24,000 bases of DNA from Candidatus Wolframiiraptor sinensis (GTDB lineage Archaea > Thermoproteota > Nitrososphaeria_A > Caldarchaeales > Wolframiiraptoraceae), in the NCBI GenBank assembly GCA_023261815.1, contig JALNKA010000009.1:13254-37253 (forward strand), read 5' to 3'. The translations under genes and the position numbers were made by a program. Each line of letters starts with the position of its first letter. The first letter of the stretch is position 1. This document shows positions 699-23,823 of the stretch, in pieces. A model generated the notes under the pieces. It ran no database searches. It had not been told where the DNA came from and was given only the letters and a program-made list of their open reading frames with translations.

Positions 699-773
699 TG
701 GGGCCGCTGGGATTTGAACCCAGGACCTCGCGGGCCCGAGCCGCGAATCATGGCCAAGCTAGACCACGGCCCC
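699..773 (-). tRNA. tRNA-Pro (anticodon CGG)
   Basis: The reverse complement GGGGCCGTGGTCTAGCTTGGCCATGATTCGCGGCTCGGGCCCGCGAGGTCCTGGGTTCAAATCCCAGCGGCCCCA folds by hand into a cloverleaf. It has a 7-bp acceptor stem (GGGGCCG/CGGCCCC), a 5-bp anticodon stem (CGCGG/CCGCG), the loop CU-CGG-GC, a 5-bp T stem (CTGGG/CCCAG) with a TTCAAAT loop, and discriminator A. There is no encoded CCA and no intron. Confidence 0.9.
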
Positions 774-14304: not shown

Positions 14305-15279
14305 TTACCGTGCCCTTGACCTGCGAATCACCAGAATCGCGGCGATGACCACCACAATTATTATCGCGATGATTATGATCGGTATCATTGAGGCCATTTC
14401 GGGGCCCGCGGCTGTGGTGGCCGGCGCCTGAGTTGTCATGGGGGTCGTCTTGCTGGGAGCTCCTGTGGTCTGCGTTGAAGCCTCCGTCTTGGTCGGCGGG
14501 CCGCTTACCGTTGATTCTATCGTTATCGTATTGGTTACGGTGCTACCGGGGATCGTTATTGTCTTGGTTATGATCGTGCCGGGCGCGGTTATCGTCGTGA
14601 CTATAGTTCGGCCCCTTTCCTCATATGTCGTGGTGTAGGTTGTGCCGGGTATAGTCGTGGTCTTTGTGACCGTGACCGGCTCTGTGATGAAGAGCTCCGG
14701 AACCGTTATGACCGTTCCACTCACCGTGTATCCGGGCATGGCTATGGAGATCGTTAAGGGCTCCCTTGCCTCGAACCTATTTATGATCGTGAGCGTTATC
14801 GCCCTGCAGTACTTCATTATCTCTCCATAAACTGGGACCGCGATGCTGAAGACCGTGCTTATCGGCCCCATGGATATCATGGTCAGAGCCTCGACGTAAT
14901 CCATGCCCGTCGTTTTCAAGGTCGTCCCGCCCTCAACACTCGTGATCGTCGTCTCATATGTTGCCGCCGGGATCGCGTAGGCCGTCGTTATCCCCGGGAA
15001 AGTCATGACCGGAATCGTGATCTCCGTGACCGGCTCGCCCCTAACAACCATGACGCACTCCTGATCGGGTCTCATCTCGACGTAGATGAGCCTGTAGCCG
15101 CCGTAGATTATCGTCGCGGCGCCGGTTGTCCCAGGCATCTCCACGATCTCGGTCGTCGTGCTCGGCGGATAAGTTATCACAGTAGTCGTCGTGGTGGTGA
15201 TAACCTGCTGAGCAAAACCTATTGATAAGACACACAATATCAGGATTATCGCGATTTGGGATAAGAGCTTACTATGCAC
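14305..15279 (-). CDS. Thr-rich secreted/cell-surface protein with signal peptide and C-terminal membrane anchor
   Basis: It has an N-terminal signal-like MHSKLLSQIAIILILCVLSIGFAQQ and a Thr-rich body with recurring xPG(T/Y/I/S)T motifs. A Thr/Pro/Ala linker (PPTKTEASTQTTGAPSKTTPMTTQAPATTAAGPE) precedes a C-terminal TM helix with an RRSRAR tail. SD-like AAGGAGAC lies upstream. Confidence 0.75.
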   Translation of the reverse strand: MHSKLLSQIAIILILCVLSIGFAQQVITTTTTTVITYPPSTTTEIVEMPGTTGAATIIYGGYRLIYVEMRPDQECVMVVRGEPVTEITIPVMTFPGITTAYAIPAATYETTITSVEGGTTLKTTGMDYVEALTMISMGPISTVFSIAVPVYGEIMKYCRAITLTIINRFEAREPLTISIAMPGYTVSGTVITVPELFITEPVTVTKTTTIPGTTYTTTYEERGRTIVTTITAPGTIITKTITIPGSTVTNTITIESTVSGPPTKTEASTQTTGAPSKTTPMTTQAPATTAAGPEMASMIPIIIIAIIIVVVIAAILVIRRSRAR

Positions 15280-15436: not shown

Positions 15437-15979
15437 GTGGGGTTGGCGTCCGAGGTGAATAGGCTCAAGACCGGGGTTAAGGGGATTGACGGCCTCATCG
15501 AGGGCGGGGTGCCCGAGGGCTTCTTGGTCGCCGTCACGGTCGAGCCTGGATGCGGCAAGACGATCTTCTCGATACACTTCATCAATCAGGGGATACTGGA
15601 TGGCGATAAGTGCATCTACATAACGACTGAGGAGAGCAGGGAGTCCATCGTGAAGCAGGCCTCACAGTTCGGGATGAATTTCGAGGAGGCCATGGATGGG
15701 GGCAAGCTGATAATAGTTGACGCGCTGATGGGCAGGGAGGATAGGTGGAGCCTCAAGTCGCTGGACATGGAGGCGCTCGTAGAGAAGATAATCGAGGCGA
15801 AGAAGGAGCTTGGATACGGCAGGGCCAGGGTCGCGATAGACTCGCTCTCGGCCTTCTGGCTCGATAGGCCCGCGATGGCGAGAAGATACAGCTACTATCT
15901 CAAGAAAGTTTTATCGAAGTGGGACTTCACGATACTCGCCGTGAGCCAGTACGCGATAACGACCGCGGAGAGCTTCGGA
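15437..15979 (+). CDS. KaiC/aRadC-like RecA-superfamily ATPase, N-terminal part of a split gene (181 codons)
   Basis: LKTGVKGIDGLIEGGVPEGFLVAVTVEPGCGKT (Walker A), CIYITTEES, RVAIDSLS and ILAVSQYAITTAESFG follow the KaiC-like/RadA-paralog pattern. Homology ends at about 15979. The same frame then runs through unrelated sequence to TGA 16109-16111. Confidence 0.8.
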
Positions 15980-16166
15980 TTAATAGAAGTATCAGATCGC
16001 CTAGCCTCATCCTTCGATCACCCTCTCAGCCCCCTCCCTATCTATCACTATTATCCCATGTTCCATATTATGAGGTGTGGTCGCGTGAGCTGTTTTCCTT
16101 TGCGTCCATGAAGCCTTATAATCTCGGCCATTTTCATCGGCTTTCAGGGGCTGGGTCGTGGAGGGC

Positions 16167-16328
16167 GTGAGGCTCATAAATTTGACTCCCCACGAGATAA
16201 CCATTTACATGGATCGAGGCGCGGTATCCATACCCCCCAGTGGACAGGTCGCCAGGATCGGCGATGTGTCCATCAACCGCGTGGAATACGGCGAGGTTGA
16301 GGAGGAGTGCTTTGGGGATGCTGGCTAG
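16167..16328 (+). CDS. Short ORF inside the insert (53 codons, VRLINLTPHEITIYMDRGAVSIPPSGQVARIGDV...)
   Basis: GTG 16167 is preceded by GGAGGGC and the ORF ends at TAG 16326-16328. It is G+C-rich like the host. It is below the ORF-track cutoff and may be a gene fragment or not coding at all. Confidence 0.2.
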   Translation: MRLINLTPHEITIYMDRGAVSIPPSGQVARIGDVSINRVEYGEVEEECFGDAG

Positions 16329-16377
16329 GGAGGCCGGCGGGATGGGAGCCGAGCTGATGAAAGGAGAGTGATGGGCG

Positions 16378-17211
16378 ATGCCTAGGAGGAAGGGTGTGGA
16401 AGAACCTGTTATTAGGAGTTTTTGGCTTAACAAGGAGGTCTACGAGTTTGCTATTGACCTACATCAAAAACTTGGCATCTCTGGAAGAAGAATTAGCAGA
16501 GCCCTTCTTGAGGCTTTCGGAATATTGATCCGCGAAGACACTATATACAATTGGCTGAATAAAGGAAGGAGTCCCATAGGGAATTGTGTAGGCCTTAGAG
16601 AATGCGAGGAACTAGCCTATTCATTAACAGCATATCTCGGGGATGGGACGAAATGTATCCGCCATTATAACGGACATACACAATACATACTGACTCTTAA
16701 AGTGACAGATTATGATTTTGCCGAATATTTTGGATATGCTGTTGCAAAGGTGGTGGGAAGAGAGAAACCCTATAAACCGATCGTCCTGAATGAACATCAT
16801 CATAAAAGATATGGATGTAAGAGGAGATTTGCAGTTAGTTTCTGTAATAAAGCATTTTATGAGCTGACGTCTCAACGCCCTTGGGTCCTATACGAGTTTA
16901 TATTACGCAAGTACCCCGCAGTCGCAATTTCAGGCTTTTTTGACGCCGAAGGAGGAGTTTGGGGACGCTATATCGGAGCGGAAAACAAGGACTATGAGTT
17001 AATACTTGTAGTACAGCAACTATTAAGTGATCTAGGAGTGCATTCAACGATATACTATAGGAGAGACAGAAACATATATGCACTACTGATTTACAGAAAT
17101 GACGCAATAATCGAGTTCTATAGAAAAATCTCCTTCAAAATCCAAAGAAAGCAAGAAAAACTGAAGAAGCTGGCTGAAGAGCTATTTTTGCGCCAAACAA
17201 TGTACGCATGA
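16378..17211 (+). CDS. LAGLIDADG-family homing endonuclease (double motif) with N-terminal HTH-like region
   Basis: There are two LAGLIDADG-type motifs, LAYSLTAYLGDGTKC and AISGFFDAEGGVWG, about 100 residues apart. The N-terminal ISGRRISRALLEAFGILIREDTIYNWLNKGRSP looks like a helix-turn-helix. It has its own ATG with AAAGGAGAG upstream, its own TGA stop and low G+C. Confidence 0.85.
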   Translation: MPRRKGVEEPVIRSFWLNKEVYEFAIDLHQKLGISGRRISRALLEAFGILIREDTIYNWLNKGRSPIGNCVGLRECEELAYSLTAYLGDGTKCIRHYNGHTQYILTLKVTDYDFAEYFGYAVAKVVGREKPYKPIVLNEHHHKRYGCKRRFAVSFCNKAFYELTSQRPWVLYEFILRKYPAVAISGFFDAEGGVWGRYIGAENKDYELILVVQQLLSDLGVHSTIYYRRDRNIYALLIYRNDAIIEFYRKISFKIQRKQEKLKKLAEELFLRQTMYA

Positions 17212-17343
17212 AAAAGAGGCTCTCCCACCCCCATTTTTCTTCTTCCTCCCAACTTTCATTCTTAATTCTAACTTAATTTTTGATCTAGATTCTAGGTTTT
17301 TCCATGTTCAAGTTTCGATACTAATGTAAAGTAGTTATGGGGA

Positions 17344-17595
17344 ATAGAGCACATAGCGGATGGCATAATCAGGTTCAGGAGGGTTCTCAGGGGCGGAGAG
17401 CTGAAGAGATTCGTGATAATCGAGAAGATGAGGCAGACGAATCATAGCAGATACCTGCATGAGGTCGATATAAGGCCCGGAGTCGGCCTCGTCGTGCTGG
17501 GAAGGGTTGATAGGAGAGCCGAGGACTACAAGCTCCCGCCGGACGTCATGAGGAAAATTCTCGAGGCAAAGCGGAGGGCTGAGGAGATACTATGA
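17344..17595 (+). CDS. KaiC/aRadC-like ATPase, C-terminal part of the split gene (83 codons)
   Basis: (G)IEHIADGIIRFRRVLRGGELKRFVIIEKMRQTNHSRYLHEVDIRPGVGLVVLG is the conserved C-terminal core of KaiC-like ATPases. No start codon is available, because TAG 17332-17334 lies directly upstream in frame. The stop overlaps the next gene's ATG (ATGA, 17592-17595). Confidence 0.8.
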   Translation: MEHIADGIIRFRRVLRGGELKRFVIIEKMRQTNHSRYLHEVDIRPGVGLVVLGRVDRRAEDYKLPPDVMRKILEAKRRAEEIL

Positions 17596-18457
17596 TCTGG
17601 GAGGATGTCAGAAAGCATTACCTCAGGCCGGAGGTGAGCAGGGAGATCACCGAGTACTGCGCGAATAGATGGGTTGCCATTCACTGCGAGGAGGCGCCGG
17701 ATGGGGTTAGGCCCATGATCAGGTATTGGGGCCGAGGCAAGCCCCTGACGATTGAGCGCGAGAACGATATCGTCGAGATCCTAGAGAGGTTTTCCTCGAT
17801 GAGGCCGAGGGCATTCTACGCTACAGCGCACATTTACAGGAGGCTGCAGTCAGCCGACGATCTAGCTGACCGCGAAAATATCGCGCGATCCTCGCCCACA
17901 TGGGATATAGACTCGAGGGACGGTGATTGGAGGAAGGTCGTGAAGAAGGCCTTAGAGATAGTGGATGAGCTGGAGAGGCATGGCGTCGCGAAGTCCATCT
18001 TCTTCAAGTGGAGTGGGAGGGGCGCCCACGTCCACGTGCACCCAAGAGCCTTCAGCGATGATGTCCTGCGCAGGATTAGCCCTCTCGATATAGCATACTC
18101 TGTTACACAGCATATCGCTTGCAGGATAGAGCCCGAGGAGGGTGTCGTCGTTGAGAACAAGATCGATGTTCAGAGGGTCTTCACCGCGCCCCTCAGCCTT
18201 CATAGATCCGTTGATAGGGTGGCCGTCTGCACACCCCCAGATGAGCTGAGAGCTTCCACGTGGACTGGACCAGTCCCTCCGGATACAGGCATTTCCCGCA
18301 TGCCTGGCGCGAGTATGAGGAGGGCGAGGGAGATGAGCTCGCGGAGAAAGCCTATGCCGCCATCGGGCCGTATATCGCCGGGCGAGCCAAGAGGAGGCGT
18401 AAGCATAAGCCGCTTGATCAGGAGATTCTGGAAGCTTTCAGGAAGCTCCGGCTATAG
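17592..18457 (+). CDS. AEP-superfamily primase catalytic subunit (PriS-like); intact reading needs a -1 frame change near 18248
   Basis: It carries AEP motifs I TWDIDS, II FKWSGRGAHVHVH and III QRVFTAPLSLHRSVDRV. After ...VCTPPDEL the track frame turns Arg/Ser/Pro-rich. The -1 frame (open from 18245) reads ESFHVDWTSPSGYRHFPHAWREYEEGEGDELAEKAYAAIGPYIAGRAKRRRKHKPLDQEILEAFRKLRL and stops at 18455-18457. Confidence 0.7.
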
Positions 18458-22016: not shown

Positions 22017-23823
22017 ATGCGGCTGGAGGCGGAGATTTCCACGCTAATCCCGAGCATTGAGGAGATTACGATAGAGGGCTTTAAGGAGTCATTCAGGAGG
22101 ATCCTGGAGCTTAAGCGGAGATGCGGAATAGAGCCTATACTCGATAATCCGCCGGATCTTCTGGAGCGCGCCAAGCTTTATGCGACGAGATTCAGAAATG
22201 GATCCCTCGGCTGGGCCTCGAATATCTAGCATAGATCCGAGGCCGGGACAGCGGTCATCGAGAAAGATGAGGATCTTAGGATGGAGCATAAGCTACTGAT
22301 GCGGAGAGTTCTCGAGCACATTCTCGCCCAGGGACCTTTAATCAAGGTGGATGGAATACTTGGGAAGCCCGGTAGCAGGGTTGAGCTGAGGTGCAGGCTC
22401 TACTGCGACCCCCAGTTCCCGGACATAGCGCACAGGTGGAGCCAGCTTGCATTCCCAGGAGACCCGTCAAGAGATCCGGATGTCGAGCTGATAGATATAC
22501 CCCATTATCTCGGGAACCCCGTGAACCCGGAGACCGGGAGAATGCTCATGGTCCTCAGATTCCCGAACCACGACTTCACGATAGTCACTTGCTCATCATA
22601 TCAGGGCGAGGTGAAGAAGGGGTTCCTAAGCCACTGGATACTCCACGTCTATAAGAGGGGCGGGACAGGCGAGCACGCCGCCCTCAGAGAGTTCACGGTG
22701 AAGAGAAAAGACGGAAGCGAGAAAAGGGTGATCCTGTGCATCTGGGGCCTTACGGGCTCGGGAAAAATCGACTCATGGGCTCTACGTCTGGGATAAGGCG
22801 AACATCGACATCTACATCAGGGAGTTCGGGATAAACCCGCTCGACTACGTCAAGGATCAGGAGATCAAGAATGATGACATAATAGCCATCTTCGAGGATA
22901 GGGTCATCGGATCCGAGCGAGGATCTTGGACGAAAACCGAGGACGTTGATCCGAGGCAGGTGGCGATCTGGAGAGCCGCCATGTCGCCCAGAGCACTCCA
23001 CGAGGATACGAAGTTCGACGAGAATGGCAACCCGTCGCTCGCCGGAAAGCTCTACCAATACTACGGCATGTTCAATAAGAATGCTAGATCCGTCTTCTTC
23101 CTCGATGATACGGGCTACTTCAATGGCGATGTTGAGTCGAGCGGGCCGATGAACATGGCGATCTTCCTCTCCCCCGGCTACTTCACCGACTACGCGTGGG
23201 TCAAGATAACTGATCCAGCCTTCGCCGCGAAAGTCCTAGCCGATGGGAGAACCATAGGGCACCCAGCACAATCGAGGGAAGCCTATGGAGTAATCTTCTC
23301 GACGAGATACTGCAAGCCGTTCACGATGGGGGTTCCATCAACAAGCCATGTCATCGGGTTTTACGAGATGCTGAAGAAGAGAATTGAGCTGGGAGACCCG
23401 ATAGATATCTACCAGTTCAATACCACCGGGAGGATAATCGCGGAGTACCGGTGGACGAGGATCAAGATTAACGACGAGGAGCTTGATGTGCCTCAGCCGA
23501 TATTCAAGCTAGCTCCAGATGGCGTGATGAAGCCCGTTGGAGGAACCTCTCCAACAATAGAGGAGACGGAGCTCTTCATACTCCAAGCGGCCCGCGGCGC
23601 GGTCGAATACGAGCCCCACCCAATCTGGGGCGAGAAGGTCCTGATACCGGTTGAAGTCGAAGGATTATCCGAGAAGAGGCTTAAGGAGCTCCAGCCGACG
23701 ACGTATCTCCCGATGAGCGAGTTCAAGAGATTGCTGGAGGCGCAGGTGAAGCTCAGCAAACATTATCTCGATAAAGACTGCCCAGGCCTCCCACCAGAAA
23801 TATACAACGCAATGGACTTTTAA
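22017..23823 (+). pseudogene. Divergent PEP carboxykinase (ATP)-like gene, disrupted by an in-frame TAG (22227-22229) and a +1 shift in an A5 run (22763-22767)
   Basis: Three track ORFs (22017-22229, 22281-22796, 22960-23823) form one reading of about 600 codons. The first two are in the same frame, separated only by TAG. SSYQGEVKKGFLSHW resembles the PckA T.YAGEIKKS.F block. The kinase-1a loop GLTGSGK|STHGL is restored only by skipping one A of GGGAAAAATCG. Downstream stretches (NDDIIAIFEDRVIGSERGSWTKT, NARSVFFLDD) loosely follow PckA blocks. Confidence 0.7.

Follow-up and report, generated by a model that had tools for sequence, protein, structure and literature searches.

Free-standing endonucleases of T4-like phages cut a conserved neighbouring gene in naive genomes, and carriers have an immune target (PMC2988022, PMC2790892). 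In phage Aeh1, mobE is inserted in nrdA and splits the gene (PMC3045599). Among archaea, all 39 group I introns reported lie in ribosomal RNA (rRNA) genes; 21 of the 39 carry LAGLIDADG genes, and one occurs in Aigarchaeota (PMC6125680). Here, we analyzed a 24,000-nt stretch of DNA from the hot-spring archaeon Candidatus Wolframiiraptor sinensis (GenBank assembly GCA_023261815.1, contig JALNKA010000009.1, positions 13,254–37,253 of the forward strand; hereafter, the window), in which a KaiC-type ATPase gene is split in two by an insert carrying a predicted LAGLIDADG homing endonuclease gene. We consider it probable that this insert, a free-standing LAGLIDADG cassette, reached its own target in the KaiC-like gene by homing, thereby inactivating the host gene, and that it is not removed. 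The type of event is known; what is new is the archaeal LAGLIDADG setting, the shared module on which the endonuclease gene rides, and the pairing of a split target with a mutated one.

The split gene is laid out in the window as follows.

15437..15979, plus strand: 5' part of the KaiC-domain ATPase gene, codons 1–181, starting with GTG at 15437 and containing VEPGCGKT
15980..17337, plus strand: inserted cassette, 1,358 nt, the same in other assemblies, with an empty site in loci L012–L015
17338..17595, plus strand: 3' part of the KaiC gene, 85 codons and the stop codon (17593–17595)

When the two exons are joined, they give one continuous match to the Pfam KaiC domain (PF06745; profile positions 1–227 of 231, E 3.8e-53). 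A search of 5.8 billion clustered proteins returned 825 homologues of the host gene (E<=1e-20), the best of which are uninterrupted proteins of 260–282 amino acids (aa) with 84–90% identity from Nitrososphaerota/Aigarchaeota-type metagenome genomes, reading ...AESFGWGIEHIADG... at the junction region. The syntenic orthologues in L012–L015 are likewise uninterrupted, and their DNA at the junction reads GAGAGCTTYGGR followed directly by TGGGGWATAGAGCA. G-[W/F]-G occupies this place in each of the 114 aligned homologues, with W in 86 and F in 28 of them. Based on these homologues and syntenic orthologues, the true join is 15979/17338 (FGWGIEH), so that the insert lies between codons 181 and 182. 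Its length leaves a remainder of two on division by three, i.e., it is out of frame, and its border slides by only ±1 owing to the dinucleotide AT shared by both ends. The rejoined exons reproduce the sequence of the uninterrupted syntenic orthologues (empty-site sequence at the restored join, GAGAGCTTCGGATGGGGAATAGAG), showing that the insertion is precise and scar-free.

Downstream of codon 181, the KaiC frame continues into unrelated insert sequence and ends at a TGA (16109–16111), adding a foreign tail of 43 aa. The 3' part is in a different phase, with an in-frame TAG (17332–17334) immediately upstream and its first in-frame start codon at GTG 17413; because of this TAG and the lack of a start codon before position 17413, WGIEHIADGIIRFRRVLRGGELKRF is not translatable on its own. 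The split arrangement was found in 24 contigs, identical except for one single nucleotide polymorphism, and a variant copy is present in one further assembly. The loci of nine of the 24 contigs (eight NCBI metagenome-assembled genomes and one Logan run) were fetched and aligned. Because the same arrangement recurs across assemblies, the split gene is not an assembly artefact.

Most of what the original prediction, made from the window alone, had said about this split is borne out: the 181 N-terminal residues with VEPGCGKT, the closing TGA, and the breaking of one gene at a conserved motif, given that the joined product spans the KaiC domain and the homologues are uninterrupted. The uninterrupted allele that it had proposed to look for in relatives is the empty site of L012–L015. 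Other parts needed correction. The different phase of the C-terminal core and the TAG upstream of it hold, but this core does not begin at 17341–17344; among the candidate joins, 15979/17338 agrees with the 114 homologues, whereas 15979/17344 and the joins producing FGLGIEH do not, and an insert of about 1,364 nt becomes one of 1,358 nt. The predicted ambiguity of the border exists but comes from the shared AT, not from several nucleotides. The 6-mer AATAGA is indeed common to both borders, but has no demonstrated role; a terminal target duplication around it was rejected, as the 5' copy lacks the TGGGG that should precede it.

The open reading frame (ORF) at 16378–17211 matches LAGLIDADG_3 (PF14528, E 8.6e-14) and has the motifs LTAYLGDG and SGFFDAEGG, each with its acidic residue, in one chain, as expected of a two-motif LAGLIDADG homing endonuclease, which we take its product to be on sequence grounds. 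As originally described, it is free-standing, with its own start and stop; it lies outside any detected splicing element, and a conserved TTATAA-containing stretch upstream suggests a promoter. An exhaustive HMMER search found 107 relatives (E<=1e-10), mostly stand-alone proteins of 200–400 aa that align end to end, and the closest solved structure is I-DmoI, a weak match (E 0.02).

The probable target is indicated by the closest relative, P0135 (43% identity), which in three metagenomes is free-standing, with 1.4 kb separating it from the 3' end of P0054, an intact orthologue of this KaiC gene. Alone among the 114 homologues, P0054 has F to H and A to G replacements in YAITT-A-ES-F-GWG-I-EH; two of its three private residues fall at the insertion site, and at the DNA level it differs at 7 positions in a segment of about 20 bp with the site at its centre, flanked by conserved sequence. 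The intact KaiC target DNA, the predicted endonuclease substrate, is GAGAGCTTCGGATGGGGAATAGAGCAC, and the P0054 variant is GAGAGTCATGGCTGGGGCTTAGAGCAC. Since these unique changes at the insertion site occur beside P0135, the endonuclease lineage probably recognises the KaiC DNA encoding ESFGWGIEH. In another orthologue (P0106, 458 aa), an intein of about 194 aa (PF14890) is inserted four residues upstream of the cassette site, with borders AITT/S...VVCHN/SEAFGWGIEH; with this intein so near the cassette site, the KaiC stretch is a repeated landing place for endonuclease-driven elements.

At the P0135 loci (L044–L046), the 1.4 kb between P0135 and the KaiC orthologue (about 1230–2690 in L045) contains no convincing ORF and no trace of the partner gene that follows KaiC in the window, and the gene calls for L044 divide the KaiC orthologue itself in two. 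A LAGLIDADG protein that is only distantly related (31% identity) is free-standing about 760 nt upstream of an RFC small-subunit gene (L010, 297–1406; L011, 4730–5846), and its L011 copy is frameshifted. L010 and L011 were set aside as a guide to the KaiC site because their endonucleases are free-standing and uninformative for it. At the P0136 locus, the endonuclease is also free-standing, with no KaiC gene nearby.

The cassette itself comprises the following parts.

15980..16106, plus strand: left segment, entered by the host frame, which stops at 16109–16111
16107..16157, plus strand: nearly invariant promoter-like stretch common to sister copies, with TTATAA at 16116–16121 (putative promoter)
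16158..16328, plus strand: 56-aa ORF, with a host-like GC content at third codon positions (GC3) of 0.70
16303..16377, plus strand: 75-nt leader, beginning at the small-gene breakpoint and found alike in copies bearing LAGLIDADG genes and copies bearing an ORF of about 300 aa
16378..17211, plus strand: predicted LAGLIDADG homing endonuclease gene, 277 aa, with two motifs, an N-terminal helix-turn-helix-like region and a GC3 of 0.39
17220..17250, plus strand: pyrimidine-rich motif with a T5 run (17234–17238), a likely terminator
17251..17337, plus strand: AT-rich right segment ending ...AATGTAAAGTAGTTA(T)

The cassette has a mosaic structure, and the part upstream of the endonuclease gene is a multi-copy module that exchanges sequence with sister copies. 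Its composition is tripartite, with a host-like 5' part (GC 54.5%), the endonuclease gene (40.8%), and the tail (35%). Compared to host genes (GC3 0.69–0.81), the endonuclease gene is foreign. The first 48 codons of the 56-aa ORF (to 16302) are an N-terminal fragment of a family of 116–128-aa proteins, of which L024 and L026 contain an intact version (complete 128-aa frame), placing the breakpoint at 16302/16303. Full-length relatives exist in Sulfurovum, Bacillota, Streptomyces, Paenibacillus, and a Hydrothermarchaeota genome, showing that the small ORF belongs to a real protein family. This small 'NLTPH' protein has no Pfam or NCBIfam family and is widespread in bacteria; in the archaeal metagenomes of L024, L026 (oriented copies), and L031–L043, its genes form repeated units with a common upstream segment of about 190 nt. 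Likeness between the cassette and its sister copies starts at TATCAGATCG (15991), about 10 nt inside the left border, and the motif AATGTRAAG is also found near the right end of L018, L021, and L029. No donor of the AT-rich right segment was found among the fetched loci.

Positions 15988–16389 of the window match L017–L030 at 80–96% nucleotide identity, with different cargo downstream. The module recurs at about a dozen other loci, mostly intergenic, in thermophilic Nitrososphaerota (Aigarchaeota-like) genomes; ten further loci were gained through a metagenome scan using a 23-mer from the near-invariant stretch, whereas exact-pattern scans of genome contigs and viral contigs, as well as plasmid and phage collections, gave no match. 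About 100 nt around 16069–16175 are almost invariant in the four aligned copies. Homologues of the 56-aa ORF (70–91% identity) are each located just 5' of a LAGLIDADG gene at other loci. The cargo consists of other LAGLIDADG genes in L017, L018, L021/L028, and L029, and of an ORF of about 300 aa with a K-T-D-x-x-D-A motif in L019, L020, L022, L023, L027, and L030. The window endonuclease shares only 23–25% identity with the endonucleases that share its module. A pyrimidine/T5-type motif was found 3' of the cargo gene in all copies checked (L016–L023, L027, L030, L045, L047), but not 3' of the intact small gene in L024/L026. Sister copies with visible flanks lie between genes, i.e., beside tRNA genes (L018, L029), beside a proteasome subunit gene (L022, L030), and between the genes for a CAAX protease and a transporter-like protein (L021/L028), and only the KaiC copy is located inside a gene. 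Between the window and L016, there are 13 differences over 8,162 nt, all of them within the module (16062–16298) and in two clusters, both of which carry variants found in sister copies, implying that the module undergoes gene conversion with other copies.

Some sister copies have features of their own. In L017 (4211–5476), the LAGLIDADG ORF has the same ~16 N-terminal residues (MVRRVYVDT...) as the ~300-aa ORF, making it a cargo-swap chimera; a duplicated PEP-synthase fragment and two UPF0146 genes lie around it. In L019, L020, L022, L023, and L030, a conserved non-coding stretch of about 110 nt (AAAGCCCUGAUGAG...GGYGAAGGGCUGUCUAGAUGC) is located just 3' of the ~300-aa ORF and precedes the pyrimidine/T5 motif, which in L027 is present without this stretch. 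It resembles a k-turn or C/D-box-like closing helix and is possibly an element-encoded RNA.

Whether KaiC is still used can be judged from the state of its operon, which includes one further gene.

17592..18457, plus strand: partner gene with faint resemblance to primase-polymerases (PF21686, E 0.04), which overlaps with the KaiC stop at ATGA

An intact Walker A motif reads GxxxxGK[ST]. Codon 35 of the window gene (GTC, 15539–15541) encodes Val, whereas the first Walker A Gly occupies this position in all of the other 113 aligned homologues (G35V). Over 97 near-invariant columns, this is the only departure of the window, and such exceptions are absent from 72 of 74 close relatives. The partner gene is conserved beside KaiC in orthologous loci (290–291 aa), but in the window a 1-nt deletion at about 18247/18248 (CTGGAG to CTGAG), identical in nine other assemblies checked, causes a frameshift. 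The PEPCK gene (22023–23544), 4.5 kb downstream, is also frameshifted, with orthologue residues 1–248 in one frame (22023–22766) and 239–507 in another (22735–23544); the other neighbouring genes are intact. Together with the missing start codon of the 3' part and three T5 runs between the endonuclease stop and the second exon (17234–17238, 17277–17281, and 17297–17301), these lesions suggest a very recent loss of a dispensable operon rather than a maintained spliced gene. All three runs had been reported in the original prediction, with the first two at slightly different positions. Just upstream of KaiC, a Thr-rich, membrane-anchored 324-aa ORF is encoded on the minus strand (14305–15279), where L012 has other genes.

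These observations can be combined in the following scenario of homing. The endonuclease would cut an intact KaiC allele at the DNA encoding ESFGWGIEH, and repair of the break from a cassette-bearing copy (intron-less homing) would place the cassette in its own target, making the allele immune to further cutting. The cassette genes would then be transcribed from the cassette's own promoter. The host gene product would be at most a 181-aa fragment with the 43-aa foreign tail (224 aa, compared to 266 aa at full length), and the 3' part, having no usable start codon, would yield no product. Such an insertion may have been tolerated because the two-gene operon was dispensable or already failing, as the partner frameshift and the lost Walker A Gly suggest; both the insertion and the operon decay would be recent.

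The gene would be equally broken if the cassette were a non-autonomous element resembling an insertion sequence, with the LAGLIDADG gene as a passenger, inserted by a recombinase acting in trans, namely the ~300-aa ORF, which may be IS110-like. We regard this as unlikely, even though several features are compatible with it. Sister copies with the same module, leader, and pyrimidine motif carry this ORF, whose first 16 residues are fused to a LAGLIDADG protein in the L017 chimera; moreover, the borders share the dinucleotide AT without inverted repeats, as in IS110-type elements, and L021 and L029 have the same right end at different loci. However, the IS110 assignment depends on faint matches (Pfam PF01548, E 0.09; NCBIfam NF033542, E 0.03) that are far below curated thresholds, and a profile of the ORF searched against the PDB returned only keratin coiled-coil noise. 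IS110-family elements encode a DEDD/serine recombinase and a guide (bridge) RNA. The window cassette contains no DEDD/serine recombinase ORF, and comparison of the cassette with the target and donor junctions for guide-like complementarity produced only chance 7-mers. In addition, the copies with the ~300-aa ORF do not share the outer ends of the window cassette, and a trans-acting recombinase leaves unexplained the unique target variant beside the closest endonuclease relative.

The remaining explanations all keep KaiC in use. Inteins are in frame, start with Cys, Ser, or Ala, and end in His-Asn followed by Cys, Ser, or Thr. The insert is out of frame, is entered by a host frame that stops at 16109–16111, has a TAG before the second half, begins with Leu, and is followed by a second half that begins with Trp after a stop codon; an intein is thus excluded, in agreement with the original prediction. 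Archaeal bulge-helix-bulge (BHB) introns form a 3-4-3 or relaxed motif from both exon-intron borders. A scan of every cut-site pair at both borders, requiring a 4-bp central helix and allowing bulges of 2–4 nt, revealed no motif at the protein-restoring joins (15978–15980/17336–17338), and co-folding of the borders at 37 and 70 °C produced no inter-border helix; the best border duplex (−18.7 kcal/mol) is no better than shuffled sequences (−21.6 ± 3.8). The earlier failure to draw a canonical BHB by hand is therefore confirmed computationally. Group I introns share a conserved core (P3–P8), have U preceding their 5' splice site, and close with G. The three FGWG-restoring joins instead leave T, A, or T, but never G, at the end of the insert, and the single join obeying the U...G rule, already singled out in the original prediction, produces FGLG, which is found in 0 of the 114 homologues. 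Group II introns have a 5' GUGYG, a 3' AY, and a domain V, whereas the insert begins with TTAATAG and has no Rfam group II match. The covariance-model search proposed earlier, carried out with Rfam 15, gave no group I or II match either over the whole window at the gathering threshold or at E<=10 on 15850–17480 and 15960–16400, where only noise appeared. Folding of the 5' part of the insert (15960–16400) is no better than that of shuffles (z = −1.0). The only Rfam match in the window is a tRNA gene (699–773, minus strand).

Several points weigh against an inactivating insertion. Neither stop codons nor frameshifts occur in the exons; the pairwise ratio of non-synonymous to synonymous substitution rates (dN/dS) against orthologues is 0.045, the same as among intact orthologues; and the window branch has 25 synonymous and 1 non-synonymous single-step changes, with no relaxed selection detected. 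Consequently, the gene was under selection until very recently, but a spliced functional gene would look the same, and, given the lack of relaxed selection on the window branch, dN/dS cannot decide between a pseudogene of recent origin and a gene that is spliced. Every sampled genome of the species has the insert, and neither the assemblies nor the 5.8 billion clustered proteins yielded an empty allele of this species. Rfam represents group I introns by one general model, which is not the most sensitive, so that the negative group I result is not exhaustive. Finally, the recognition of the KaiC target by the endonuclease lineage depends on one comparative observation.

An intron spliced from the mRNA (by the archaeal splicing endonuclease acting on a relaxed motif, by a divergent group I ribozyme, or by another, unknown route), with KaiC still made, would account for a precise insertion in a conserved motif, fixed in all sampled genomes, between exons under purifying selection. 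Precedents are the LAGLIDADG-bearing group I introns of archaeal rRNA genes, including the one in Aigarchaeota (PMC6125680), and the BHB introns of archaeal cbf5 mRNA (PMC2738675). Nevertheless, we consider splicing very improbable. Not only do the borders provide no BHB, covariance-model match, or terminal G at any join consistent with the homologues, but the conserved 5' third of the cassette consists of a promoter-like stretch, 48 codons of an unrelated gene, and the leader, and hence is no ribozyme core. Furthermore, the sister copies are mostly intergenic, where splicing plays no part, T5 runs precede the second exon, and the partner gene is frameshifted. The original prediction favoured an intron over an inactivating insertion, and here the evidence (no BHB, no group I or II intron, and a damaged operon) reverses it; its appeal to homing logic holds for a free-standing endonuclease cassette, but not for an intron.

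A reversible DNA switch, in which precise excision restores KaiC in part of the population, is hardly credible. Precise excision is known for some IS110-family elements, and the scar-free insertion with its 2-nt border repeat, as well as the possibly IS110-like relatives among the sister copies, would fit such a switch (hypothetical circle junction of the excised cassette, ...AAAGTAGTTAT/TAATAGAAG...). However, no empty-site allele of the species turned up in any assembly or in the protein collection, there is no recombinase gene in the cassette, the link to IS110 is unproven, and the frameshifted partner gene and G35V speak against maintained function. Taken as one, removal of the cassette, be it from the transcript (without a BHB or a known type of ribozyme core) or by exact excision from the DNA, with KaiC still made, is improbable. 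Least credible of all is a gene in pieces whose halves are made separately and reassemble, as in phage Aeh1 NrdA split by mobE, where tails mediate assembly (PMC3045599), even though the N-terminal half ends in a 43-aa insert-derived tail, because the second half has no in-frame start between the stop directly before it and GTG 17413, and a two-piece protein would miss at least 25 conserved residues, among them GIEHIADG, together with the strands after it.

If the KaiC gene was indeed inactivated by homing, then archaea have free-standing LAGLIDADG endonucleases that home without a splicing element, at the cost of the host gene. Homing without a splicing element is documented mainly for phage HNH and GIY-YIG enzymes. 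The locus also calls for caution, as an endonuclease gene placed exactly in a catalytic-core motif, between exons that rejoin perfectly, need not mean an intron or intein. The module, which is common to different LAGLIDADG genes and a putative recombinase and whose copies exchange sequence, offers a natural system for the study of selfish genes that swap vehicles, and the split target of the window and the mutated target of P0054 together make a directly testable prediction of a new endonuclease specificity. Were the cassette spliced or excised after all, it would be the first case of an endonuclease-bearing intervening sequence within a protein-coding gene of an archaeon.

Compared to described systems, the locus is closest to the phage cases. 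As in T4-like phages and Aeh1 mobE, the endonuclease has its own expression signals (with a putative promoter) and is located in neither an intron nor an intein; as in Aeh1, it is associated with a conserved enzyme gene that is split out of frame in one lineage; and as in T4-like phages, the P0135 lineage has the endonuclease beside the gene and an altered target sequence. Unlike the T4-like phages, the setting is an archaeal chromosome and the enzyme is of the LAGLIDADG type rather than HNH or GIY-YIG; unlike Aeh1, the 3' half has no start codon and a two-piece protein is not expected; and unlike the phage systems in general, the endonuclease rides a multi-copy promoter/leader module common to other mobile elements.

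Likeness to intron systems is more limited. The LAGLIDADG-bearing BHB introns of archaeal rRNA genes (I-DmoI) and the cbf5 intron (PMC2738675) share with the cassette a thermophilic archaeal host and a conserved insertion site, and I-DmoI is also the nearest solved structure, albeit at only E 0.02; in contrast to the rRNA introns, the cassette has no border BHB, lies in a protein gene, and contains a promoter-like stretch and a foreign gene fragment. Archaeal group I introns (PMC6125680) likewise occur in related lineages, including Aigarchaeota, and carry LAGLIDADG genes, whereas the cassette matches no model, lacks a terminal G at the join that agrees with the homologues, and has a conserved part that is coding. 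As in the 'fractured genes' with split inteins (PMC2677866), a host gene is broken by an insert encoding a free-standing endonuclease, but here intein halves are absent: following residue 181, the tail begins with Leu and lacks intein motifs, and the second half is preceded by a stop codon, not ...HN. The P0106 intein lies four residues upstream of the cassette site, in the same gene family and within the same conserved region. Unlike the window cassette, that intein is in frame and is removed at the protein level, and its host gene stays functional.

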